A DNA stretch of 64,000 nucleotides. Source: Acinetobacter phage nACB1. Both the position numbers and the translations under genes were made by a program. The stretch lies in the sequence record OQ032511.1. The stretch is one strand, 5' to 3'. Below are positions 1,078 through 63,898 of this stretch, in pieces (the first letter of the stretch is position 1; every line of letters starts with the position of its first letter). The notes under the pieces were generated by a model, which worked only from the letters and a program-made list of their open reading frames with translations, was not told the origin of the DNA and did no database searches.

Positions 1078-4000
1078 ATGGCAGATTATAAATCACTCCA
1101 AGTGTCAGACGCATTATCCCGAATTACTAATCAATTGAAACCACAAGTTACTTATGGTTCCTTAGGTAGTTCTGTATACGGTCGTAACACTAATACGCCT
1201 GATGCTATTGCTGCTGATCAACAAGCTATTCAACAAGGTCAGCAATACTATAACTCTATCTATGGTAAGACTGGTTCTGACTATGTACAAGATGCAGGTG
1301 TAGCTTTAGCTAAAGGTGTTGTATCAGTTCCACAAGCAGCTGCAGGTATTGTTGACTTGCTTGATGCAGGTGCTCAATTCGCTACAGGTCAAGATGTTCA
1401 AGGTGGACGCTTCTCTAAGAACTTAGCAGATGTAGGTGTAGACTTTGCTACCACTCAAGACATTATGTCTGGTTGGTTTAGTGAAGGTACTCAACGTCAG
1501 ATGCAAGAATTAGCTGCACTTCCTGGAATGTCTACAGAACAATCCTTAGGGCAGAACTTAAATTCATTAGGTTCTACTTTAGGTTATGTTGCAGATAATC
1601 CATCTATTGCTCTTAACACTATTATCCAATCATTGCCTTCTATTGCTGCAGGTGGTGTTGTAGGTCGTGGTGCTGCAGCATTAGGTGCAAGAGGAGCTGC
1701 AGGTGCTATTGGTGAAGGTACAATAATGTCAGGCCAAGCACAGGCTAATATGGAACGTAATGCAGAAGGTTATACAACTGGTCAACAAGCATTAGGTGCA
1801 TTAGGTATTGGTGTATTGGGTGGCTTAGTAGGTCAAGCAGGTAATCGTATTGCTGCTACCCGTGGAGCTGCTGATATTGATCAGGTAGCTGCAGGTGTTG
1901 GTAGTCAAGCTGCAAACCAAGGCTTCAAATCATTAACTGTAGGTACTGCAACAGAGGCAGCAGAAGAAGCTGCACAGTCTGCATTAGAAAATGTTATTAC
2001 TAACGTTAGCTCAGGTAAAGATGCAATCCAAGGATTAAACCAAGACTTAGTATTAGGTACTCTTGCAGGTGCAGGAATGGGTGCTGCTGTTAATGCTAAA
2101 TCTTCTATTGGTACTGCTGCTTTGGAAGCTGTACAGAATGCAGCTAACAAACAAATTGAACGTGCTAAGGAGAAGATTAGTCGTGAAGCTCCTGAACAAA
2201 CTGATACCCCTACTGAACAGTTTACAGACCCAAGTTCTCCTTCATATAACCCTTCTGCTGCTTTGGTTAGAGAAGCCAAGAAGTTAACTGAAGCTACTAC
2301 ACCTGAAGAACAGTTAGATGTACGTAATAGCTTTAATTACATTATGGAAGAGCAAGAAGCTTATCTTGGTGGTTTAATTGAGACACGCGATGCAGTACAG
2401 AACATTGATAACTTACGTCAGTCAATTGTTAATGCTGATGCTGCTGTAGAAAGATTTGCAGAGTCTGACCCTGCTAAGGCAGAACAGATTGCTGCTATCT
2501 CAGCTAACTTAAAAGAACAAGTTGCTGTAGCTGAACAGTTCATTGGTAATGAGCAAACTCTTGATGCTCATATTGCTGAGGTGGAAACTAAGGTACAAGA
2601 AGCACGTGATATTCATACTCGTTATGACAGCTTAATGCAGCGTGCTACAACTAATGATGAAACTATGGATACTCAAATCTTTGGTGCTCCTCAGAAGTTC
2701 ACACCAGAACAGATTGAGAAAGCTATCAATGATCCTAAAGTACCAGAAGCTAGTAAACCTGCTTTACGTGCTTTAGCTGATGCTGTAGTTGCACAGAATG
2801 CTGTTAAGAATATTGATGCTGTAAACCAACAGATTACTGGTAAACAGTATGACTCTAATTACCGTAGTACTCCTCAATACTTAGCTCAGTTTACTCGTGC
2901 TATTAAGCAAGGTAATACAGCTCAACAAGTTAACCTTATGCGTGAGATTGGTGCGTTTGAACAATCACATGTGCAGAAAGCTGAGATAGTACAACAAGGT
3001 TTAGAGTTAGCTAGTTCAGGACAGCCAGTACAGATTATTCGTAATCAAGATGGTTCATGGGCATTCAATCAAGGTGAGTGGTTATCTCGTACTGCTGCTA
3101 AAAAGAATGGTGCTATTACTATTGCTTCACCTAAGCAGATTGAAGCTGTAACTAAAACAAGTGAATACATGCAAGCAGAAGCTCAAGCTATTACTGCTAC
3201 ACGTAATGCAATGGAGCAACTAGATGTACTCAACAACCCTAATGGTTCAGTCGTTAGACCAAGCAATGTGGCAACACAAAGTACACCTGAAACCCAAGAA
3301 GTACCAACGCAACAAGCAACTGATTTCCAAGCTGCTATTGATGAACTCAACTCACTAGAGCGAGACAACTATGACTATCAACCTCAGCGACGTGTTGAAG
3401 ACCCACGCGAATCTTTATCACAGCCTAGCTTTGATGGAGCTATCAATGCAGAAAGCCAAGTTCCTACAGGAACACAATCTACCAGTGGAACCATGTCTAG
3501 TGGAGATACCTCCCAAGTACAAACCCCAACGAACACTGAAGGCACTACTCCAGTAGCGAAGGCTGAACGTGTTGCAAGTCGTAGCGTAAGCGAAGACGTA
3601 GCAACGGAAGTTCAGACAAGCACAGAAGCAGCAACCCAAGCAACCAACGAAGAAACTACTGAAGAAGTGGTTACTCCTGAAGTTAAGAAAGAAGCTGAGC
3701 CACAGGATATTAATACTGTAGAGAAAGCAGATAAGAATCCTGCTCGTACTGCTGAACGTGCTAAAGAGCCTAAGAAACGTAATCTTGTTATTGATGGTTT
3801 TAATCAACGTGATACTGTGCTTAATCGTAATGAGAACTTTGTTAAGCGTTTTATGAATCGTAGTAACATTGCTCCAGTTGTAGAATCTATTACTGGTAAA
3901 GCTCCTACACCTAAACAAGAGCAAGCTCTTAAAGACTTTACTAACTTTGCTAATTACTTTGATAGTAAGTTAGACATTATTGGTAGTAAGCAAGAAGACT

Positions 4001-34364: not shown

Positions 34365-34932
34365 TTTAAGTCAGTGGGAGCGTGAACGCTTTGTCTATGG
34401 TGATGCAGCAGGAGATGGTAAAGGAGACTTCTTACGCGTTCATGCTATTAAAGCAGAGCATGCAGACAATCTCTTATTCTCTTGGCTTAGTGGTGGAGCA
34501 AGTGAAGTACGTTTACCTGATGCACTTCCTATAAGTCGTGGTGGTACAGGTTCTGCTACTGTAGCAGGTACTATTCGTAACCTTGGGTACTTTGAAGATA
34601 CTAACCATGTCTTACGACGTGGAACTAAAGTATTAACGTTAGCTGATACAGGTATCTTAGACCGCTTTCAAAACTTACCTAATGCTACGTTTACTAAGCG
34701 TGCTACAGGTGAGTATGTATTGAAAGGTGTTGAACTAGACACTAAGTTGTTTGGTATGGTTTTCCCTATAACTAATCTAAACCAGTTACGTTATATTGCT
34801 ACTACTGCTTTAGGTGCTGTAGGTGAGACTATTATCAAAGTCTTTGTAGCTAACAATGCTACTAATCCTCCTAGTCCTGGAGCTGCTGTAGACTTACCTA
34901 CAGGTGTCTACATAGACATAGAATGTAAATAA
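34354..34932 (+). CDS. hypothetical protein (192 aa), last gene of plus-strand module
   Basis: ORF followed by strong terminator. Confidence 0.45.
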   Translation: MPTNLSQWERERFVYGDAAGDGKGDFLRVHAIKAEHADNLLFSWLSGGASEVRLPDALPISRGGTGSATVAGTIRNLGYFEDTNHVLRRGTKVLTLADTGILDRFQNLPNATFTKRATGEYVLKGVELDTKLFGMVFPITNLNQLRYIATTALGAVGETIIKVFVANNATNPPSPGAAVDLPTGVYIDIECK

Positions 34933-34963
34933 AAATAGCCCTCTTTTGAGGGCTTATTTTTTA
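34930..34963. terminator. bidirectional intrinsic terminator at convergence point
   Basis: aaaaa-tagccctc-tttt-gagggct-tatttttt. Confidence 0.7.
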
Positions 34964-46729: not shown

Positions 46730-47854
46730 TTATGCCTTAGTCATCTCAGGTGCATTGCTTTGCAACCATTGACGCAATGATGGATGTACTACTAACGTTG
46801 GTTTACGTTTAGTGAAATCCGTAAAGGTACGTAGTTGGTACTCTTTAGACATACGCTCCATGAATGGAACTACTTTGTCTAACGTGCTTGCATCTACTTG
46901 AGCTGCAATAGAACCTGATAATGCAAACATAGCTGAGATGTTCTCAGATGGAATCTTCGCATTAAGAGGGTCTGCACATACTTCTGCAAATGTGGTTAAA
47001 CCAACGAAGTGCTTAGTAAAGTTCATGTACTCTACTGCAGCTCCTTCACCGATAACACCTGACAGTAATGACTGAAGTGATGGATCATTCATACCAACCT
47101 GTTCTACAACACGGTTAGCCATTTCCCAAGTACGAGGGCATGGGAATGTTTCTGTCTCAACTTTTGGATTGAATTGATACAATAAGTTTGGACGAAACTT
47201 AATGAATGAAGTGATTGAGTGATGAATGCCTGCGCCTAAAGCCCAGTTCATCCAATCTTCAATATTCAATTCAAGATTCATATGAGCTAAACGAGATTTC
47301 AATGCTGTAGACATTTCACCTGTTACTGCTGCACCATCATCAATTTTGTTACCTGCAGATACGATACGTACTGCTTTATGTAGCGGGTGCATACCCACTT
47401 CACGATCAAGAATGATCTTATATGCTGCTGCTTGAACAGACATAGGAGCATTTGTGATTTCATCAAGGAATAGTAACCAACCATCATAATGAGGAGTTAC
47501 ATATAACAGATTTCCATTAGTATCTGTTTCTTGATTACCTAATGCATCCAACTTAGGTAACTTGATTGGTTTACCTTCAGCATCTAAATGTGGAGGTAAT
47601 GCATCACCTTGAATTGGAAATGCAATGTTAGGTAAGAAGTCACTACGACCATTCTCAATAAATGGCATTCCAGATAAATCTGTTGGGTCTGCAGTAGATA
47701 GGCGAAAGTCGATAACCTTAAGGTTAAGCTCTTTAGCTACCTGTTTAATTACATCAGACTTACCTAGACCTGGAGAACCAATAAGGTTACAAGGTACATT
47801 GGCTGCAATAAAAGTCTTGATGAATGTTGCTGCTTTGCTGATTGAAATATTCAT
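46730..47854 (-). CDS. MoxR-like AAA+ ATPase
   Basis: Walker A NLIGSPGLGKSDV, Walker B LLFLDEITNAP. Confidence 0.55.
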   Translation of the reverse strand: MNISISKAATFIKTFIAANVPCNLIGSPGLGKSDVIKQVAKELNLKVIDFRLSTADPTDLSGMPFIENGRSDFLPNIAFPIQGDALPPHLDAEGKPIKLPKLDALGNQETDTNGNLLYVTPHYDGWLLFLDEITNAPMSVQAAAYKIILDREVGMHPLHKAVRIVSAGNKIDDGAAVTGEMSTALKSRLAHMNLELNIEDWMNWALGAGIHHSITSFIKFRPNLLYQFNPKVETETFPCPRTWEMANRVVEQVGMNDPSLQSLLSGVIGEGAAVEYMNFTKHFVGLTTFAEVCADPLNAKIPSENISAMFALSGSIAAQVDASTLDKVVPFMERMSKEYQLRTFTDFTKRKPTLVVHPSLRQWLQSNAPEMTKA

Positions 47855-48418: not shown

Positions 48419-48751
48419 CTAAGCCGTACGAAGTACGGGGAACTCATTAATACGAAAGCTTAAGTTACGCCATTCTTTTTCATACCAAGCTTCTACTCCG
48501 TCAACACTAGCGTGATTTCTTAGAGCGTAGATTTGTTGTATGTACTCTGAAGCTGTAGTGTCTGTATAAGGTGTTGTCCAAAAGTTACCGTCAGATTTAA
48601 CAAAAGGTTTTTCTTCATACACATAAACATCCCCTGTCTCATCTACTGCTATATAACCAGACTCATATAAATCTGTCGGAACAGTTATACCGAAACCAAA
48701 GAAATCTATGATTGTTGTCTGAGCTATGATATTTAAAAATACTGTACTCAC
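48419..48751 (-). CDS. hypothetical protein, paralog A (110 aa)
   Basis: MSTVFLNIIAQTTIIDFFGF... paralogous to next gene; ATGA overlap. Confidence 0.5.
   Translation of the reverse strand: MSTVFLNIIAQTTIIDFFGFGITVPTDLYESGYIAVDETGDVYVYEEKPFVKSDGNFWTTPYTDTTASEYIQQIYALRNHASVDGVEAWYEKEWRNLSFRINEFPVLRTA
48424..48438 (-). promoter_or_regulatory. 6-bp stem / GAA-loop hairpin (vRNAP-type promoter candidate) inside 3' end of paralog A gene
   Basis: ccgtac-GAA-gtacgg on plus (template) strand, ~120 nt upstream of next minus-strand gene. Confidence 0.3.
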
Positions 48752-49068
48752 GGTCTACTCCATATAGGAAATTCTTGTACACGCCAATATTGTTTATTCC
48801 AGATTTCACTATACCATTCCACCAAACCATCAATCTCATAACTAGTAAGATTTAATAGCGTGTTTGAAAAGGAATTCCATTCAAATGATGCAGTCCATAC
48901 AGAGCTATTAAGTACTTTAGGGCGATAGTTAAAAACATTAATATCACCATCATGATCAATAGCTAGATATAGATTGTCATACCACCATTCTTTTTGAATA
49001 GCTACTGGAAAGCCAAAGAAATCAATACAGATAATCTCTACCTGTATGTTTAAAAATACCGCACTCAT
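48748..49068 (-). CDS. hypothetical protein, paralog B (106 aa)
   Basis: MSAVFLNIQVEIICIDFFGF...; RBS caggag. Confidence 0.5.
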   Translation of the reverse strand: MSAVFLNIQVEIICIDFFGFPVAIQKEWWYDNLYLAIDHDGDINVFNYRPKVLNSSVWTASFEWNSFSNTLLNLTSYEIDGLVEWYSEIWNKQYWRVQEFPIWSRP

Positions 49069-49083
49069 AGAGTACTCCTGACA

Positions 49084-49118
49084 TAAAAAAAGCCCTACAT
49101 CTTGAGGAATGTAGGGCT
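49084..49118 (-). terminator. strong intrinsic terminator (10-bp stem + T7) 13 nt upstream of the RBS of gene 49068
   Basis: Minus strand: agccctacat-tcctcaag-atgtagggct-ttttttt. Confidence 0.7.
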
Positions 49119-49748
49119 ATAAATAGAACAGTACATGGAGAGATACTGTTCTGAGGTTGAAAGATAAATTCGAGAGTCCTGACCGACACAGTGGACTATT
49201 CTGTTGCTAAGGTAAACGCACCTTGTCTTCACGTTACACGCTCTATTACAGGGTCTATGAATAAAAACCAGTAAGGAAGATCGTCACCGAGGTAATACCT
49301 TAAGGAGCAAGGCAAGTGATAAGCCACGTGATAGGGCTATGGGGTAGTTCACATTGGTGGAGGATAAGCCATAAGATGACTAATCTCATGTGGGTTTCAG
49401 GCCGAAGTCTATAACACTCGTACCTTACAGGATTAACCGTAATAAAGCCTCACTTCAGTAATGCACATCTTCAGAGTCCTCGCCGAAGCTCGTCTTATCA
49501 TTTACATATTCTGGTTCGTCTCTTACCCTCCCCAATGAAAACTATCCCGATATGTTATGCACAGTGATCGGGAAGTTTCATCAGCCTATTCATGTCATAG
49601 GTGACTAGAAAAGACAGTAGAGCGAATCGTACTGTCTTAGTTGGTTGTGATGGGAAGTTACCGCGAATCACTTACCATACCTCACCTCGGTGCTAGATAT
49701 TCCTGCAGAGAACATCACGTAGGTCTATTGGCATCAACAACCACATCA
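49119..49748 (-). ncRNA. ORF-free, highly structured ~630-nt region (candidate non-coding RNA or regulatory leader)
   Basis: No ORF >50 codons in any minus frame and none >=60 aa in six-frame track; many hairpins (49127..49150, 49611..49638), long-range complement caccgaggt (49285)/acctcggtg (49684), repeated gagagtcct 300 nt apart; bounded by GAA hairpin and terminator. Confidence 0.4.
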
Positions 49749-49763
49749 GCATCCGAAGGATGC
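49749..49763 (-). promoter_or_regulatory. 6-bp stem / GAA-loop hairpin (vRNAP-type promoter candidate)
   Basis: gcatcc-GAA-ggatgc on plus strand, just downstream of the tRNA-cluster terminator. Confidence 0.35.
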
Positions 49764-49771
49764 CAATACTT

Positions 49772-49803
49772 ACAACAAAAAGCCTATCACGATGGATAGG
49801 CTT
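49772..49803 (-). terminator. intrinsic terminator ending the tRNA cluster transcript
   Basis: Minus strand: aagcctatc-catcgt-gataggctt-tttgttgt. Confidence 0.6.
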
Positions 49804-49815
49804 ATGTATTAAATC

Positions 49816-49892
49816 TGGTCAGTACGGTAGGACTCGAACCTACATATTCCAGCATCCAAGGCTGGGCGATTACCCTTTCTCGCAACGCACTG
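49816..49892 (-). tRNA. tRNA-Pro (anticodon UGG), CCA encoded
   Basis: Manual cloverleaf: acceptor cagtgcg/cgtactg, D-stem gcga/tcgc, anticodon stem ccagc/gctgg, loop cuUGGau, T-arm gtagg-ttcgagt-cctac. Confidence 0.65.
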
Positions 49893-49894
49893 AT

Positions 49895-49976
49895 TGGTGT
49901 AGCCACTTGGATTCGAACCAAGGTGTGATATAGCGGAGTTACAGTCCGCCCCCTTCGACCACTCGGGCATAACTAC
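49895..49976 (-). tRNA. tRNA-Tyr (anticodon GUA), 82 nt, CCA encoded
   Basis: Acceptor gtagtta/tggctac (two G-U), D-arm ccc-gagtggtcgaa-ggg as in bacterial tRNA-Tyr, anticodon stem gcgga/tccgc, loop cuGUAac, T-arm cttgg-ttcgaat-ccaag. Confidence 0.6.
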
Positions 49977-49980
49977 AATT

Positions 49981-50058
49981 TGGTTCCCAATCTCAGAATC
50001 GAACTGAGAGTCTCTTACTTACAAGGCAAGTGCTATAACCAACAACAGCTTCTTGGGA
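49981..50058 (-). tRNA. tRNA-Thr (anticodon UGU), CCA encoded
   Basis: Acceptor tcccaag/attggga (one mismatch), D-stem gctg/tagc, anticodon stem cttgc/gtaag, loop cuUGUaa, T-arm ctcag-ttcgatt-ctgag; position 8 is A. Confidence 0.5.
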
Positions 50059-50059
50059 A

Positions 50060-50143
50060 TGGCGGAAGGTAATAGAATCGAACTATTCCCAGTTAAGAGA
50101 GCACGGCGTTCAAAACCGCTTTGTACCCAGTACGCTACCTTCC
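50060..50143 (-). tRNA. class II tRNA, probably tRNA-Ser (anticodon UGA), 84 nt, CCA encoded
   Basis: Acceptor ggaaggt/accttcc and ...cttccgcca 3' end like bacterial tRNA-Ser; anticodon stem gcggt/gccgt, loop uuUGAac; T-arm aatag-ttcgatt-ctatt; D-arm and variable arm not cleanly resolved by hand. Confidence 0.5.
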
Positions 50144-50180
50144 AAGGTTGGCAATACTACAAGAGTAAAACCAACCAGTC

Positions 50181-50199
50181 AAGGGTACGTAGTACCCTT
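50181..50199 (-). promoter_or_regulatory. 8-bp stem / 3-nt loop hairpin between SPFH gene stop and tRNA cluster (processing site or weak terminator)
   Basis: aagggtac-gta-gtaccctt overlapping stop codon 50198..50200; no U-run follows on minus strand. Confidence 0.3.
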
Positions 50200-51013
50200 A
50201 CTTGATTTGACCAAGAGCACTGAACTTTTCAGGTACGATAACCATAGTGTTCAATGTTCCTTTTTCAGCAGCTTTCAACAATGCTTGAGATTTAATTAAC
50301 TCAGCTTCAGCACGTTGCAGATCAATATACTTTTCAGAAGCATTCTCTGCTAATACACGCTTAACTTCGGTTTCAACCTTAGCTGTCTCAAGCTCATTCT
50401 GTTTTGTCTTCAGAGCATTCTGAGAGTTCACAATAGCCAATGATGAATTGACAATTGATTGGTGTGGTTTCACAGCCAAGATGTTTACTTCATTTACTGT
50501 AGCAAAGCGATCCTTACCTGCAAGCTTAAGACGCTTGTTCAACTCAGCTTTAATAGCTGCTTCGATTTCAGTACGGTTATCATTTACTTCCAGTGCTTTG
50601 TACTTGCTTACAGCAGTTTGTACAGAAGCATCAGTAATGTCTTGGATGTATTTACCCATCAAGAAAGTTTCACCTTCCACAATTAAGTGTTGAGCTTTTT
50701 CTGTCTTGAAAGCAACAGCAGCATTGTCGGGAACAATACCGTAATTGATTTTGGTAACGAAAGCAGCCATAGGCACTTTCTCTTGAGTGATTGGGTTAGT
50801 GTTCACTTGCATAACTAAGTTACGCTTAGACACTTTAATCACATCACCAACAACAACTTGGTGTAATCCTTGCTGCAGAATTTTGTCTTCGATTTCACCT
50901 GAGAAGGTTTCACGAATACCTACTTCTGCATCTGTTACACGAGAGTATGGACTGCATGCAGTCATAGCTACAGAAGCAGCTACTAGTAAGCCTACGGCTA
51001 ATTTACGAAGCAT
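50198..51013 (-). CDS. SPFH/band-7-like lipoprotein (271 aa)
   Basis: Signal peptide with Cys (LLVAASVAMTAC); long coiled-coil C-terminus with QRAEAEL motif typical of SPFH proteins; call from motifs only. Confidence 0.45.
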   Translation of the reverse strand: MLRKLAVGLLVAASVAMTACSPYSRVTDAEVGIRETFSGEIEDKILQQGLHQVVVGDVIKVSKRNLVMQVNTNPITQEKVPMAAFVTKINYGIVPDNAAVAFKTEKAQHLIVEGETFLMGKYIQDITDASVQTAVSKYKALEVNDNRTEIEAAIKAELNKRLKLAGKDRFATVNEVNILAVKPHQSIVNSSLAIVNSQNALKTKQNELETAKVETEVKRVLAENASEKYIDLQRAEAELIKSQALLKAAEKGTLNTMVIVPEKFSALGQIK

Positions 51014-54801: not shown

Positions 54802-55107
54802 TTAAGGGTTATTGGAAATTTCCACATCAGGTTCCGAAGGAACCCAAGCCAAGAGATAAGCATCAAATGCTTCTTTAGTAGGGAGTATCTCAAACTGAGC
54901 TACATCATGTAAGCGTATTAAGGCAGCATCTTTACTGTATGATGCTACATACTCACCTTCTAACCAAATAGCATATCCTACTAAAGCAGTATCAAGTAGA
55001 TCACCCATAGAGTTAAACTTGTATCCATGCTTAACTAATACATCCTGAAACTTACGTTTAGATATTGATGAGTTAAACCGTACTGTTTTTACAATTCTTT
55101 CAGCCAT
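54802..55107 (-). CDS. hypothetical protein (101 aa), member of overlapping ~100-aa array
   Basis: ORF; C-terminal ..AFDAYLLAWVP resembles array paralogs. Confidence 0.45.
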   Translation of the reverse strand: MAERIVKTVRFNSSISKRKFQDVLVKHGYKFNSMGDLLDTALVGYAIWLEGEYVASYSKDAALIRLHDVAQFEILPTKEAFDAYLLAWVPSEPDVEISNNP

Positions 55108-56836: not shown

Positions 56837-56853
56837 AGCGTCTGGAAGACGCT
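56837..56853 (-). promoter_or_regulatory. 7-bp stem / GGA-loop hairpin: N4 vRNAP-type promoter candidate
   Basis: agcgtct-GGA-agacgct on plus (template) strand, just after a terminator and 42 nt upstream of ATG 56795. Confidence 0.45.
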
Positions 56854-57827: not shown

Positions 57828-59060
57828 TCAGCATATTCCATAGTTTGAGTTCCTGATCTTATTACCTAAGTCATTTGACTTCTTAGTATAAGTAACACGT
57901 TGTTTAGTTACTTGACTTACAAGGAAGCTAAGCATGTCACTCTCTGCAAGCTCTGCACAGATTTCTTTATACCAATAGCGGACAGTATCACAGTGACTCG
58001 GAAGGGAACCAAACGAGTCATGAACAGTTACCACAGGTGAAGAACCACGAGCAAGCATTTCACCCAATACAGCAAGTAAACGAATAACCATAGCAATAGG
58101 TACATGATGTACATTCTTCTCATTGATATAGTCAATGATTGAAACATCTAACATAGCTGAATACTTGTAAATATCTAACATGGTTTGTAATGCATCATCA
58201 CAAGGCTCTGTAGTGTCACCATCTACTGATAGTGAGTCATCAAGCAGCTTGTAAGCTACTTGTACCTTCTTCACATCGAACGAAGCTCTACGGATCACTG
58301 AACGTAATACGTAAGCATCAACTGAGTGAGTAACGTTAGCTACATTTGCTAAGCCTTTCTCTGTACCTTGGTTGATAGACACATACGTTGTAAATGTAGT
58401 GTGGTTAAGCTCATCAACTTCGATACGAGTTTCTTTCTGCTCTAACACTTTAACAATTACATGATGGTTATCAGGTAGTGTCCACGAGTGTTGTAGAGCA
58501 TATGGCTGCCATGTATGTAGTAATGAAGTCATTAGCTCGAATGCAGCAGGAGCTACAACAGCAACAGCTTCATAGAATACTTCTAATAAGTCACCCTCAC
58601 CAAATACCTCTTTAGGTACTGCTGTAGAGCCATAGACAGAAGTCATCATGGCACGCTTAACATCGTTACGTGGAACTACGATTGTGCTCATACCACGTAA
58701 TTGAAGAATCTTATTCATCTCAATAGTAACGTCGGTATATGCATCAGCTCGTTTATTAGATACTAAACCAGTGGCATCAGCTCCACGTACACAACCTGCC
58801 ATAGCAGATAGTAATTGGATACCTGAACATGTAGCATCAAGATGTACAATGTGTCCTGTTGGTTTACCTGCAACTACATTACGTAGTTCATGTACAGCTT
58901 TCAGATATAAAGGTTTAACGTCTGCTTCATCAGCTAGTTGTTCTAACTGATCATAGTTGTCTTTAACCCATTGTATACGTTGCTCAAATAACCATTTGTC
59001 TTTACCAAAGTGGTTAGCAATATCAATGCAAAGGTAGTCTAAAGGTAAATAAGTTTTCAT
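57828..59060 (-). CDS. phage RNA polymerase II catalytic subunit (T7-like single-subunit RNAP C-terminal part)
   Basis: Motif A HLDATCSGIQLLSAM, motif B RNDVKRAMMTSVYGS, motif C VTVHDSFGS. Confidence 0.7.
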   Translation of the reverse strand: MKTYLPLDYLCIDIANHFGKDKWLFEQRIQWVKDNYDQLEQLADEADVKPLYLKAVHELRNVVAGKPTGHIVHLDATCSGIQLLSAMAGCVRGADATGLVSNKRADAYTDVTIEMNKILQLRGMSTIVVPRNDVKRAMMTSVYGSTAVPKEVFGEGDLLEVFYEAVAVVAPAAFELMTSLLHTWQPYALQHSWTLPDNHHVIVKVLEQKETRIEVDELNHTTFTTYVSINQGTEKGLANVANVTHSVDAYVLRSVIRRASFDVKKVQVAYKLLDDSLSVDGDTTEPCDDALQTMLDIYKYSAMLDVSIIDYINEKNVHHVPIAMVIRLLAVLGEMLARGSSPVVTVHDSFGSLPSHCDTVRYWYKEICAELAESDMLSFLVSQVTKQRVTYTKKSNDLGNKIRNSNYGIC

Positions 59061-59077: not shown

Positions 59078-59347
59078 TTAATGATTAAAGTAATTAACAA
59101 TGTCTTCCCATGCTAAATGACTTAGCATGAGGAATTGGAGATAGTCTTGTTCGTTTAAGTAGATGACACTTCTATCATCTTCAAATTGAGGTAATTCAGG
59201 AAAGTAGTTACATACCCATGACTTGCGGTAGAAGTTAAATGCAATGGATATACAATTAACTTTCCAACCTCTATCAAGCTCACCTATACGATGTTCATCA
59301 GGTAAGTCAGTTACATCAAATATCAGTGTTGCTAGTGAAGTAATCAC
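59078..59347 (-). CDS. small ORF (89 aa) bridging the two RNAP II subunit genes; possible third RNAP piece or frameshifted segment
   Basis: Fills the 255-nt gap between subunit ORFs; overlaps upstream ORF by 32 nt in another frame. Confidence 0.35.
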   Translation of the reverse strand: MITSLATLIFDVTDLPDEHRIGELDRGWKVNCISIAFNFYRKSWVCNYFPELPQFEDDRSVIYLNEQDYLQFLMLSHLAWEDIVNYFNH

Positions 59348-60296
59348 TTGGAACCTCCAGTTTTACTTTGTCATATAAGTCAACAGATGCTTTCTTATAT
59401 GCAGCTCCCTGTGGTGTGATGTGATAGCCTTGCATGTAAAGTCTTCCACGTTTATCAGGCTTAACAGTGATATACATCTTGTTCCCATTCATACGAATGA
59501 GATTGTAGAAGTATGCAGACTGCTGAAGATGCTTCTTCCAGTTCTGATGTTGTTGTGCTATTGCACGTTGTAGATCAATCGTATTCATTAAATGAGAGTC
59601 TTTAACTACATTGAGATCAGTAGTTGGCTCCTCTTTAATGTTGTCTAATACCCACTCATTGAGCGTGTATTTATAACGATTCATCAGGTTAAGTACATCA
59701 AGACAGATAGGCTCATTGTGGTGGTTTATAGAACCTCCTAGTATCAATGATTCACCTTTAATAGTGAGATACCCACTATCACGATTACCTCGTAATGTCT
59801 TTGGTTTAGATAGCATTGGTGGTAAGTAACAAGCACGTTCAACATAGGCTTGTAGCTCATCATTCAGTTTGAAGTTACTACGTACATAGACAGAGCTATT
59901 AACGTGATACTTAACTAAATGATAGAAGTTGGTATTACATACAACAGCTAATACTTCAGCCATAGTTTGAATACCAACACGAGTATCATCAAAGCCAATA
60001 GCAGGAGCTAATTGACTTGCTAGATTGTTAAGTGTGGTTTCAGTACTAAGACTAGCTATACGTACGAATATGTCTGTTACAAGCTCTTTCAAGTCCATTT
60101 GTGATACATGGTCTTTACGAGTTTGTTTGGATGCATACGAGCTTGGTGATTGACACCAATTATTAATAAGCTCTACGCCTTGGTTAATACGATTCTCAAC
60201 TTCAGGTATTGTAGCCATATAATCAAGCACAGCTTTCTTAATACCTTTACGAGAGAACATATTCTCAATTGCCATTTGGCCTTCAACTAAATTCAT
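59316..60296 (-). CDS. phage RNA polymerase II N-terminal subunit (T7 RNAP N-terminal domain-like)
   Basis: 326 aa just upstream of catalytic subunit, as N4 gp15/gp16; no catalytic motifs (expected). Confidence 0.45.
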   Translation of the reverse strand: MNLVEGQMAIENMFSRKGIKKAVLDYMATIPEVENRINQGVELINNWCQSPSSYASKQTRKDHVSQMDLKELVTDIFVRIASLSTETTLNNLASQLAPAIGFDDTRVGIQTMAEVLAVVCNTNFYHLVKYHVNSSVYVRSNFKLNDELQAYVERACYLPPMLSKPKTLRGNRDSGYLTIKGESLILGGSINHHNEPICLDVLNLMNRYKYTLNEWVLDNIKEEPTTDLNVVKDSHLMNTIDLQRAIAQQHQNWKKHLQQSAYFYNLIRMNGNKMYITVKPDKRGRLYMQGYHITPQGAAYKKASVDLYDKVKLEVPSDYFTSNTDI

Positions 60297-61267: not shown

Positions 61268-61338
61268 AAATACTCCAATAATAGAGTTAGAAAAGCCCTA
61301 CGAATAGGGCTATAGATATTAGTCTTGCTTAGCGAAAA

Positions 61339-63881: not shown

Positions 63882-63898
63882 ACTGTACGGAGTACAGT
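63882..63898 (-). promoter_or_regulatory. 7-bp stem / GGA-loop hairpin: N4 vRNAP-type early promoter candidate
   Basis: actgtac-GGA-gtacagt on plus (template) strand in AT-rich non-coding DNA upstream of the first minus-strand early genes. Confidence 0.45.

Follow-up and report, generated by a model that had tools for sequence, protein, structure and literature searches.

Large, intricately folded RNAs are rare in bacteria and phages, and almost all of those studied perform unusual chemistry or form unusual assemblies. Phage T4 encodes small stable RNAs of no known function that are co-transcribed with its transfer RNA (tRNA) genes; these are species 1 and 2 of its tRNA cluster (rnaC/rnaD), of about 120-140 nucleotides (nt) each. 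ROOL and GOLLD are phage RNAs of about 580 to more than 800 nt, located near tRNA islands and containing multistem junctions and pseudoknots (PMC12286853, PMC5737381). ROOL averages about 580 nt, occurs in phages and prophages, often next to tRNA islands, and its function is not known (PMC5737381, PMC12286853). In GOLLD, the 3' part is conserved and the 5' part is variable (PMC12286853, PMC5737381). The sole non-coding RNAs reported for an N4-like phage in the literature found are the late small RNAs of Pseudomonas phage LUZ7, which lie between orf69 and orf70, are shorter than 250 nt, are expressed late and have no reported conserved structure (PMC9163698). The present analysis concerns an RNA element of Acinetobacter phage nACB1 (sequence record OQ032511.1), of which a stretch of 64,000 nt was analysed as a whole (the window; coordinates given without a locus name are positions in it). 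The element occupies 49742..49085 of the minus strand; a tRNA cluster and the terminator of that cluster lie on one side of it, a strong intrinsic terminator on the other. Computation revealed strand-specific RNA structure with compensatory changes, a modular make-up, conserved synteny and no coding frame. On balance, the element is probably a stand-alone, modular, multi-domain large non-coding RNA of the tRNA island, stable and acting in trans.

Similar to ROOL, the RNA follows a tRNA island, measures 650-800 nt in full-length relatives and has a predicted junction (in domain D1) and pseudoknot (in domain D2); tRNA clusters stand upstream of it in the window and in most related loci. It differs from ROOL in its helix layout, in the Gram-negative Acinetobacter hosts and in belonging to lytic N4-like podoviruses. 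GOLLD is likewise a large phage RNA near tRNAs, and here the domains are modular and the unit lies in the tRNA operon; however, sequence and structure are unrelated to those of GOLLD, and this RNA is smaller than most GOLLD members. Assembly into a homo-oligomeric RNA nanocage is a further feature of ROOL and GOLLD. The late small RNAs of LUZ7 are found at another locus and are unrelated to the one considered here. The shared size, setting and junction features amount to a resemblance to ROOL and do not prove membership. Because the size class and the tRNA-gene setting are shared with ROOL and GOLLD while the sequence is unrelated, repeated evolution of large RNAs in phage tRNA islands is suggested.

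All 4227 Rfam 15 families were compared by cmscan with permissive filters (E <= 10) with three divergent members, namely window 48500-50500, L017 3100-3760 and XC38 L001:2740-3420 (L numbers denote related loci and contigs). Neither ROOL (RF03087) nor GOLLD (RF01998) matched any of the three at this threshold, and Rfam 15 gave no match to group I/II introns, RNase P, tmRNA (sought also with ARAGORN), OLE, raiA, HEARO, 6S or riboswitches. Only the tRNAs passed the thresholds, other matches having E >= 0.3 and falling mostly on the terminator hairpin. Since no Rfam 15 match was found in three members, the RNA falls outside the classes ROOL, GOLLD, OLE, raiA, introns, RNase P and tmRNA. Literature searches, with the catalogue of about 10,000 candidate viral structured RNAs (PMC10690425) lying outside the comparison, yielded no such RNA described in N4-like or Acinetobacter phages. 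Both searches agree with an earlier note on this DNA, made from the letters alone, which knew of no such architecture in N4-like phages and had proposed the Rfam scan. The element is a new RNA class that is analogous to ROOL and GOLLD and belongs to neither.

Strand-specific structure and modular make-up

The description of the region in the earlier note as a highly structured unit free of open reading frames (ORFs) between the tRNA cluster and the next gene holds. Each of the six frames of the element contains 10-16 stops, the longest stop-to-stop run being 62 codons, and the homologs carry 3-20 stops in each frame of each sequence. A protein-coding frame, which the note had named among the findings that would refute it, was sought in all six frames of 18 element sequences, and none was open. 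The folding energy of the sense strand is -231 kcal/mol, compared with -192 +/- 7.6 for shuffled sequences (z = -5.18), and the antisense strand (reverse complement) gives z = -1.95; thus the structure is more than chance. The homolog in Acinetobacter phage XC38 folds with z = -5.07.

Comparative evidence for the fold comes from domain D1, a long closing helix with a multi-helix junction and inner hairpins (Table 1). In a plain MAFFT alignment of 13 sequences, 95.4% of the cells are paired, against 31-42% when the partners are slid, and double changes occur in 28 of the 44 pairs; none of 500 shuffles reached the observed values. RNAalifold on 11 full-length members gave 76 pairs, 44 of them with compensatory double changes. 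The copy of Acinetobacter phage At2 was left out when the structure was derived. With this held-out copy added, 95.9% of the D1 cells are paired (30-44% when slid) and 29 of the 44 pairs show double changes, again unmatched in 500 shuffles; At2 brings new compensating variants both in the D1 closing helix and in helix Pb of domain D2. A covariance model of D1 (R1) scores 168.2 bits in the window, where no other site reaches E < 0.5, and it finds the At2 copy at 150.9 bits (E about 3e-48), the other strand of At2 scoring 21 bits. Sense-strand scores range over 150-198 bits, compared with 21-28 bits on the opposite strand (the latter in XC38 and At2). Furthermore, G-U wobbles are kept at fixed D1 positions; 13 of 14 sequences, for instance, have UG, and 3 of 14 have GU. 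The conserved G-U pairs and the strand asymmetry indicate that the fold belongs to the minus-strand transcript and not to the DNA. The check for covariation in related phages that the note had proposed thus yielded helices conserved with compensating changes.

Domain D2 consists, in order, of a small hairpin, Pa; Pb enclosing Pc; the invariant string AUCUUCCU; Pd; AUAGAG..GUAAC..AGAC; Pe; a pseudoknot; a conserved tail and an optional hairpin Ph. Its helices are formed by every member with differing sequences, the variants of Pg being AGUCC/GGACU, UGAUGC/GCAUCA, AUCCCU/AGGGAU, UCCCCU/AGGGGA and CCUUG/CAAGG. Two anchored alignments (A8 and A10) were built for the pseudoknot and Pb/Pc because plain MAFFT set several D2 helices one column out of register. 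The pseudoknot is 92.4% paired (30-46% when slid), with double changes in 9 of 11 pairs, and Pb/Pc is 99.2% paired (25-38% when slid), with double changes in 9 of 10 pairs; in both figures Pg and the 3' strand of Pb were fixed by the anchors, and Pf, Pc and the 5' strand of Pb were placed by a best-helix search, which favours pairing. Plain MAFFT with RNAalifold also recovers Pd, Pe and Pg with compensatory changes. By eye, At2 fits all D2 helices, with new variants such as UAGCUU/AAGCUA in Pb. An RNase P P4-like pairing of GGCUUAU with AGUCC was rejected since AGUCC pairs with GGACU with covariation. The long-range complement of 9 nt noticed earlier (about 49699..49691 with about 49290..49282) is not supported either: it competes with the covarying Pb and was not found by eye in XC38, L016 and L020. 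The same applies to the repeat AGGACTCT, whose copy near 49480 lies in a D1 stretch that is variable among relatives, the 9-mer not being conserved.

Upstream of D1, the relatives have P1, P2 and a further module, D0, in common. Hairpin P2 is found in about ten complementary versions, for example GGTGGAG/CTCCGCC, GGTGCAG/CTGCACC, CAGAG/CTCTG and AACAGTG/CACTGTT (read from alignments). At the place of P0, L008 and L003 have the same hairpin, and L017, L012 and L015 have other hairpins. The internal helices proposed earlier at 49638..49611 and 49150..49127 proved to be real, with counterparts in relatives. The conserved RNA of the relatives begins about 100-150 nt further upstream with D0, which is closed by the 12-base-pair (bp) long-range helix ATTAAACCAAKG/CMTTGGTTTRAT, that is, AUUAAACCAAKG/CMUUGGUUURAU (RNAalifold); its K:M pair covaries (UA in 7, GC in 5 and CG, AU and GU in 1 each). 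The window copy is truncated at its 5' end. In L003, L035 and XC38, the same hairpin that precedes the window RNA (in L003 together with the preceding terminator, the same cassette as in the window) is followed by small ORFs, one in L003, one in L035 and two in XC38 (genes 67 and 66), of which the last runs into D0. Because these three phages have small ORFs and D0 between the hairpin and the rest of the RNA, the window copy looks, from its sequence, like a deletion variant whose promoter now immediately precedes the RNA. In the D0 helix, the 5' arm, GAATTAAACCAAGGCCAA, also encodes the final codons ELNQGQEDDQ* of the small upstream ORF, an 'HCP-like protein' in XC38 (L003:5036-5069, L035:3002-3035, XC38 L001:2712-2744). 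Phages without the small upstream ORF keep the RNA sequence of the arm, and the sequence after the arm diverges.

Segments S1, S2 and S3 are the same elements in all relatives. S1 (UCAAURAGAC) is a near-copy of S3 (CCAAURAGAAC), the 3' strand of the D1 closing helix, and each is complementary to S2 (GUUCUYAUUGG), the 5' strand of that helix. RNAalifold pairs S1 with S2 in the upstream alignment, which ends at S2 and excludes S3. The R:Y position of S1-S2 covaries (A-U in 9, G-C in 5, G-U in 1), and the inner half of S2-S3 covaries strongly. In the window, S1-S2 has a compensating change (A-U; G-C in others), and S2-S3 has a mismatch. The aligned sequences indicate that the two helices are mutually exclusive and both conserved. 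The three segments may work as a switch or as a handle in intermolecular pairing, or they may reflect an intermediate of co-transcriptional folding.

Full-length units of relatives are about 650-800 nt long, and several natural variants lack a domain. L015 and L010/L011 have D1 and the terminator without D2. In L012, L014 and L018, the closing helix alone is retained of D1. L019 has D2 and a different insert inside the D1 helix. The sequences upstream of the D1-like helix in L019 (z = -1.5) and after the tRNAs in L018 (z = -2.7) are not clearly structured.

The window belongs to an N4-like (Schitoviridae) phage with two RNA polymerase II genes (59316..60296 and 57828..59060) and a MoxR-like ATPase (47854..46730). 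Its nearest GenBank record for the region is XC38 (genus Exceevirus), with 76% identity over only a quarter of the query; the match sits in an unannotated 666-nt gap. In At2, the element lies inside a 1-kb gap which likewise carries no annotation. Related contigs were gathered via the ATPase, and the element was then located in them by profile searches. At least 17 distinct genomes or contigs of N4-like phages, most of them 70-80 kb long, carry homologs, always between a Band_7 lipoprotein gene and the p95/MoxR-like ATPase genes (synteny by tblastn). Pairwise identity is 50-75%; some sequence blocks are nonetheless invariant. Profile searches found no element in L005, which is more distantly related (46% identity in the ATPase). 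Four conserved strings, sought as exact patterns in IMG/VR, matched only XC38, L003 and L007, the last within a long ORF of an unrelated contig and taken as chance. This L007 site (L007:1971-1994, IMGVR_UViG_3300037056_000015) is identical over 24 nt to the XC38 pseudoknot region, GCAGAATGATCCACTGTGTCGATA, and falls in an 896-amino-acid (aa) ORF of a viral contig with no other similarity, so the identity is probably fortuitous. A JGI metagenome scan with one three-block D2 pattern gave 8 matches, of which nhmmer upheld none. The D1 closing-helix pattern, run against 185,579 species genomes and IMG/VR, gave no new copies beyond the known L003 contig (as L006); its 25 + 1 new matches were unrelated inverted repeats. 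The two cultured phages with the element, XC38 (Acinetobacter pittii) and At2 (Acinetobacter tandoii), can be grown in the laboratory. Because they are culturable and natural variants with loss of a single domain exist, deletion, expression and structural tests are directly feasible.

In At2 (L063), two tRNA-like sequences with the T-arm motifs GGTTCGAATCC and GGTTCGATTCC are seen at 2100-2265, neither called by ARAGORN nor annotated, between the RNA and the promoter-like hairpin GAACCC-TTC-GGGTTC (2057..2071).

Promoter-like hairpins, terminator and downstream genes

The order on the minus strand given by the earlier note, with tRNA-Ser/Thr/Tyr/Pro followed by a terminator and a hairpin whose template strand has a GAA loop, was recovered by ARAGORN and by terminator and hairpin scans. 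The hairpin represents a recurrent motif with a 6-8 bp stem, a T(T/A)C loop and a ..GTGG(TT) tail on the coding strand; it is strand-specific and precedes transcription units. Perfect 6-bp GC-rich hairpins with a TTC loop and a TGATGTGG-type tail occur on the minus strand at 54844, 53202, 49763 and 48438. Stems of at least 6 bp with GAA/TTC loops number 8, compared with 0.7 expected and a maximum of 4 in 100 shuffles. This shuffle test was used instead of a first tail pattern, TTCN6YTKWGTGR, which was mis-specified and uninformative. In relatives, the tRNA clusters are preceded by an equivalent hairpin, GAGTCC-TTC-GGACTC TTGACTGG, and the motif also precedes both p95 and the small ORF located upstream of the RNA, positions that are conserved in 14 relatives. 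The only hairpin in L020, L017, L019, L036, L015 and L010 precedes the tRNAs, and for this reason tRNAs and RNA appear to be co-transcribed in these six loci. In L016, L030 and L034, no gene separates the terminator of the RNA from the promoter hairpin that comes next.

In the N4-like phage LUZ7, GC-rich hairpins whose loops have 3-4 nt serve as early and as middle promoters, the first transcribed base being a G at a distance of 13-15 nt from the loop centre (PMC9163698). The G's at 49742/49741 lie +14/+15 nt from the loop centre of the hairpin before the RNA, which by analogy would be a promoter with its start at 49742/49741. The location of all sites of this hairpin downstream of the RNA polymerase II genes makes them probable middle promoters. 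Resembling the promoters of the N4 virion polymerase and of LUZ7 (criteria in PMC9163698), the hairpins here have a GC-rich stem of at least 5-7 bp, a 3-nt GAA loop with a central purine on the template strand and a one-orientation recurrence before transcription units. They differ in the T(T/A)C loop consensus of the coding strand with its ..GTGG(TT) tail. The middle promoters of coliphage N4, unlike those proposed here downstream of the RNA polymerase II genes, are not hairpins. From the recurrent motif, an initial map of probable promoters in this phage clade can be drawn. In a second hairpin class, the stems are of 7 bp and the loop is TCC (template strand GGA); its members are ACTGTAC-TCC-GTACAGT at 63898..63882 and AGCGTCT-TCC-AGACGCT at 56853..56837 of the minus strand. 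One of the two lies upstream of the RNA polymerase II genes, the other shortly downstream. These may be early (virion polymerase) promoters distinct from the T(T/A)C class.

The terminator with a run of seven T that had been noticed close to the ribosome-binding site of gene 49068 was found at 49118..49085. Its stem has 11 pairs (5 G-C) and a 6-nt loop, and the T run starts at 49091, the last stem base. A terminator is present in every homolog, with an invariant lower stem, AGCCC/GGGCU, and a covarying upper stem; it would form the 3' end of the RNA. The same AGCCC/GGGCT stem is seen at 34932..34959, where AGGGCTATTTT and AGGGCTTATTT on facing strands look like a bidirectional terminator; 61289..61299 is a further site resembling it.

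The two paralogous small genes downstream (p106/p110) gave no informative match in Pfam and PHROG, the PHROG matches being weak. This family of tandem paralogs of 100-116 aa stands directly behind the RNA in the window, L003, L008, XC38, L020 and L035 (tandem at L003:5801-6473, L008:4829-5472 and L020:3215-3898), and in L036 it follows after a 68-aa ORF. According to tblastn, 7 of 15 loci (L016, L017, L030, L034, L010, L015 and L019) have no member of this family behind the RNA. In XC38 (L001 3408-3641), an 80-residue tblastn match to the 110-aa protein of the window spans genes 65 (41 aa) and 64 (59 aa), which may be pieces of one p110-family gene (frameshift or mis-annotation). A conserved antiterminator pairing with the 5' arm of the terminator was looked for by eye, without an exhaustive search, and none was found. 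L017-type members do not retain the only candidate, GGGCU in D1. S1-S2 and S2-S3, the alternative helices, lie about 300 nt upstream of the terminator.

Interpretation and alternative explanations

As a stand-alone RNA, the transcript would start at its own hairpin-type phage promoter near 49742, probably in the middle phase, run for about 658 nt on the minus strand and end at the terminator at 49118..49085. It would fold into the D0 remnant, P0-P2, D1 (22-bp helix and four-hairpin junction) and D2 (nested helices, invariant pyrimidine-rich strands and pseudoknot). The terminated RNA would be a stable trans-acting product, an RNA scaffold or particle, alone or with protein, and could act during the takeover of host translation or of the tRNA economy, as proposed for ROOL and GOLLD; read-through would merely also supply the downstream small genes. 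A more far-reaching proposal, put forward tentatively and with considerable doubt, is that this is a new 'ornate' class of large phage RNA, which would be the first of its kind both in Schitoviridae and among the phages of a Gram-negative pathogen genus. Such an RNA might be an RNA machine or self-assembling particle or an S1/S2/S3 conformational switch, with D0, D1 and D2 as exchangeable modules, acting on the host translation/tRNA system or on RNA-directed defence in the middle of infection.

Several points weigh against a stand-alone trans-acting RNA. The promoter, the start site, the stability of the RNA and its action in trans are inferred. The L008 copy has no recognisable upstream hairpin promoter, and the window copy is without the 5' arm of the D0 helix, the tRNA-unit terminator and hairpin standing in its place. 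The family is small, about 17 genomes. The alignments A8 and A10 were hand-registered, being anchored on invariant strings with N padding. D1 and D2 are lost or reduced independently, so that several separate RNAs are conceivable. In addition, the ribosome-binding site of p106/p110 lies 5-10 nt past the terminator in the window and about seven relatives with no intervening promoter, and therefore read-through transcripts with the RNA as 5' leader must exist; a secondary cis effect on p106/p110 is possible.

An array of separate small stable RNAs, D0, D1 and D2, cut from the tRNA-operon transcript by tRNA-processing nucleases in the manner of the T4 cluster RNAs, is the main rival, an unlikely explanation that nevertheless accounts for the modular losses and the L019 insert, for the closure of each domain by its own helix and for the co-orientation with the tRNAs, with which the element is apparently co-transcribed in six loci. 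Against it, the order D0-P1-P2-D1-D2-terminator is fixed with only a few nt between D1 and D2 in most members, no tRNA-like processing signals were seen between the domains, and the whole unit has a single terminator and at most one promoter. The T4 RNAs are of about 120-140 nt each. Distinctly unlikely is a cis-acting leader governing terminator read-through or use of the ribosome-binding site of p106/p110, perhaps also of the replication-gene module that follows. In its favour, only 5 nt, without a promoter, separate the terminator from the AGGAG of gene 49068, p106/p110 follow directly in six loci (plus L036), pairing with a Shine-Dalgarno sequence is conceivable for the invariant pyrimidine-rich strands of D2 (AUCUUCCU and ACCUC), there are alternative helices (S1-S2 and S2-S3), and regulated terminator read-through occurs in LUZ7 (PMC9163698). 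However, the association with a downstream gene is not constant, p106/p110 being absent in 7 of 15 loci, and in L016, L030 and L034 a promoter hairpin comes directly after the terminator. The terminator stays when D1 or D2 is lost, no conserved antiterminator pairing was found by eye, no Rfam cis-regulatory family matched, and an RNA of 650-800 nt and about 15 helices greatly exceeds known attenuators and riboswitches in size. Of the two readings which the earlier note had left side by side, the stand-alone RNA has gained from the compensatory changes, the strand polarity and the promoter-like motif, and the leader with a terminator/antiterminator switch has lost ground owing to the loci without p106/p110.

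It is very improbable that the pairing reflects DNA structure, be it that of a replication origin, of a packaging site or of extruded hairpins. Extruded DNA hairpins do serve N4-like phages as promoters (PMC9163698), and the element is located just upstream of the replication-gene module, but the conserved G-U wobbles would be A-C mismatches on the other strand, folding energy and covariance-model scores are strongly asymmetric between strands, duplex DNA would not be expected to form a pseudoknot or a helix that closes about 190 nt, and the unit ends in an intrinsic terminator. A protein-coding gene in decay, or structure that arose by chance in spacer DNA, is given practically no credence. 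Phage genomes do contain pseudogenes, and the region is unannotated in XC38 and At2; six closed frames in 18 of 18 sequences, invariant blocks at 50-75% overall identity and compensatory changes far above the shuffled and slid controls stand against this, the covariation counts already contradicting it.

Feature coordinates and further observations

The positions of the features are collected in Table 1.

Table 1. Features of the RNA locus and its flanks in the window, in minus-strand order
Feature	Position	Strand	Sequence or description	Basis
Promoter-like hairpin, TAC-loop variant	50199..50181	minus	AAGGGTAC-TAC-GTACCCTT then GACTGGTTGG; just before tRNA-Ser	hairpin scan
tRNA island	50143..49816	minus	Ser-UGA, Thr-UGU, Tyr-GUA, Pro-UGG; upstream of RNA, same strand	ARAGORN and Rfam tRNA matches
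Intrinsic terminator of tRNA unit	49774..49803 (hairpin 49803..49780)	minus	AAGCCTATC...GATAGGCTT then TTTTGTTG	terminator scan
Hairpin before RNA	49749..49763	minus	GCATCC-TTC-GGATGC then TGATGTGG; template (+) strand GCATCC-GAA-GGATGC	perfect 6-bp stem
D0 remnant	49650..49715	minus	CTGCAG ... GGTATGGTAAGTGATTC ... CTTCCCATCAC	alignment of upstream regions, 17 loci
Hairpin P0	49612..49637	minus	AGACAGTA...TACTGTCT	sequence
Hairpin P1	49601..49585	minus	CCTAT/ATAGG	kept in 11 full-length sequences
Segment S1	49584..49576	minus	CTGATGAAA	complementary to start of D1
Hairpin P2	49572..49546	minus	CCCGAT/ATCGGG	complementary versions among relatives
Segment S2	49542..49532		5' strand of D1 closing helix
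Domain D1	49346..49542	minus	22-bp closing helix GUUUUCAUUGG.../...CCAAUGUGAAC, multi-helix junction, four inner hairpins	RNAalifold
Segment S3	49356..49346		3' strand of D1 closing helix
Domain D2	49119..49345	minus		helices listed per sequence
Helix Pb	in D2	minus	TCACT/GGTGA; encloses hairpin Pc and conserved bulge AUACCUC
Invariant string	49281..49274	minus	AUCUUCCU
Pd to Pe	in D2	minus	Pd, variable-length hairpin; invariant AUAGAG..GUAAC..AGAC; hairpin Pe
H-type pseudoknot, Pf + Pg	49204..49175	minus	GUCGGUCA / GUCGNNNN; 8-nt third loop
Helix Pf	49204..49201 with 49191..49188	minus	ACAG with CUGU
Helix Pg	49197..49193 with 49179..49175	minus	AGUCC with GGACU
Hairpin Ph	49151..49126	minus	optional
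Intrinsic terminator of RNA	49085..49118	minus	11-bp stem AGCCCTACAT..ATGTAGGGCT then 7 T	terminator scan
Shine-Dalgarno	49079..49075	minus	AGGAG; 5 nt past terminator T run
Paralogous small genes	49068..48748; 48751..48419	minus	106 aa; 110 aa; ATG at 49068	ORF list
Promoter-like hairpin	48438..48424	minus	CCGTAC-TTC-GTACGG; next after the hairpin of the RNA	hairpin scan

HNH endonuclease genes (Pfam HNH_3; in L012 also NUMOD4) are found in the replication module at L020:4458-4997, L012:10084-10641, L016:9569-10204, L017:7699-8148 and L032:8666-9235. The insertion sites differ among these five contigs, and the module is otherwise collinear. The large subunit of RNA polymerase II is a single 410-aa ORF in the window, and in XC38 (L021, record 71701..73775) it is represented by two coding sequences (genes 87 and 85) around the hypothetical gene 86. 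An HNH endonuclease gene (gene 84) adjoins these split polymerase genes, and a mobile element may thus interrupt the large-subunit gene.

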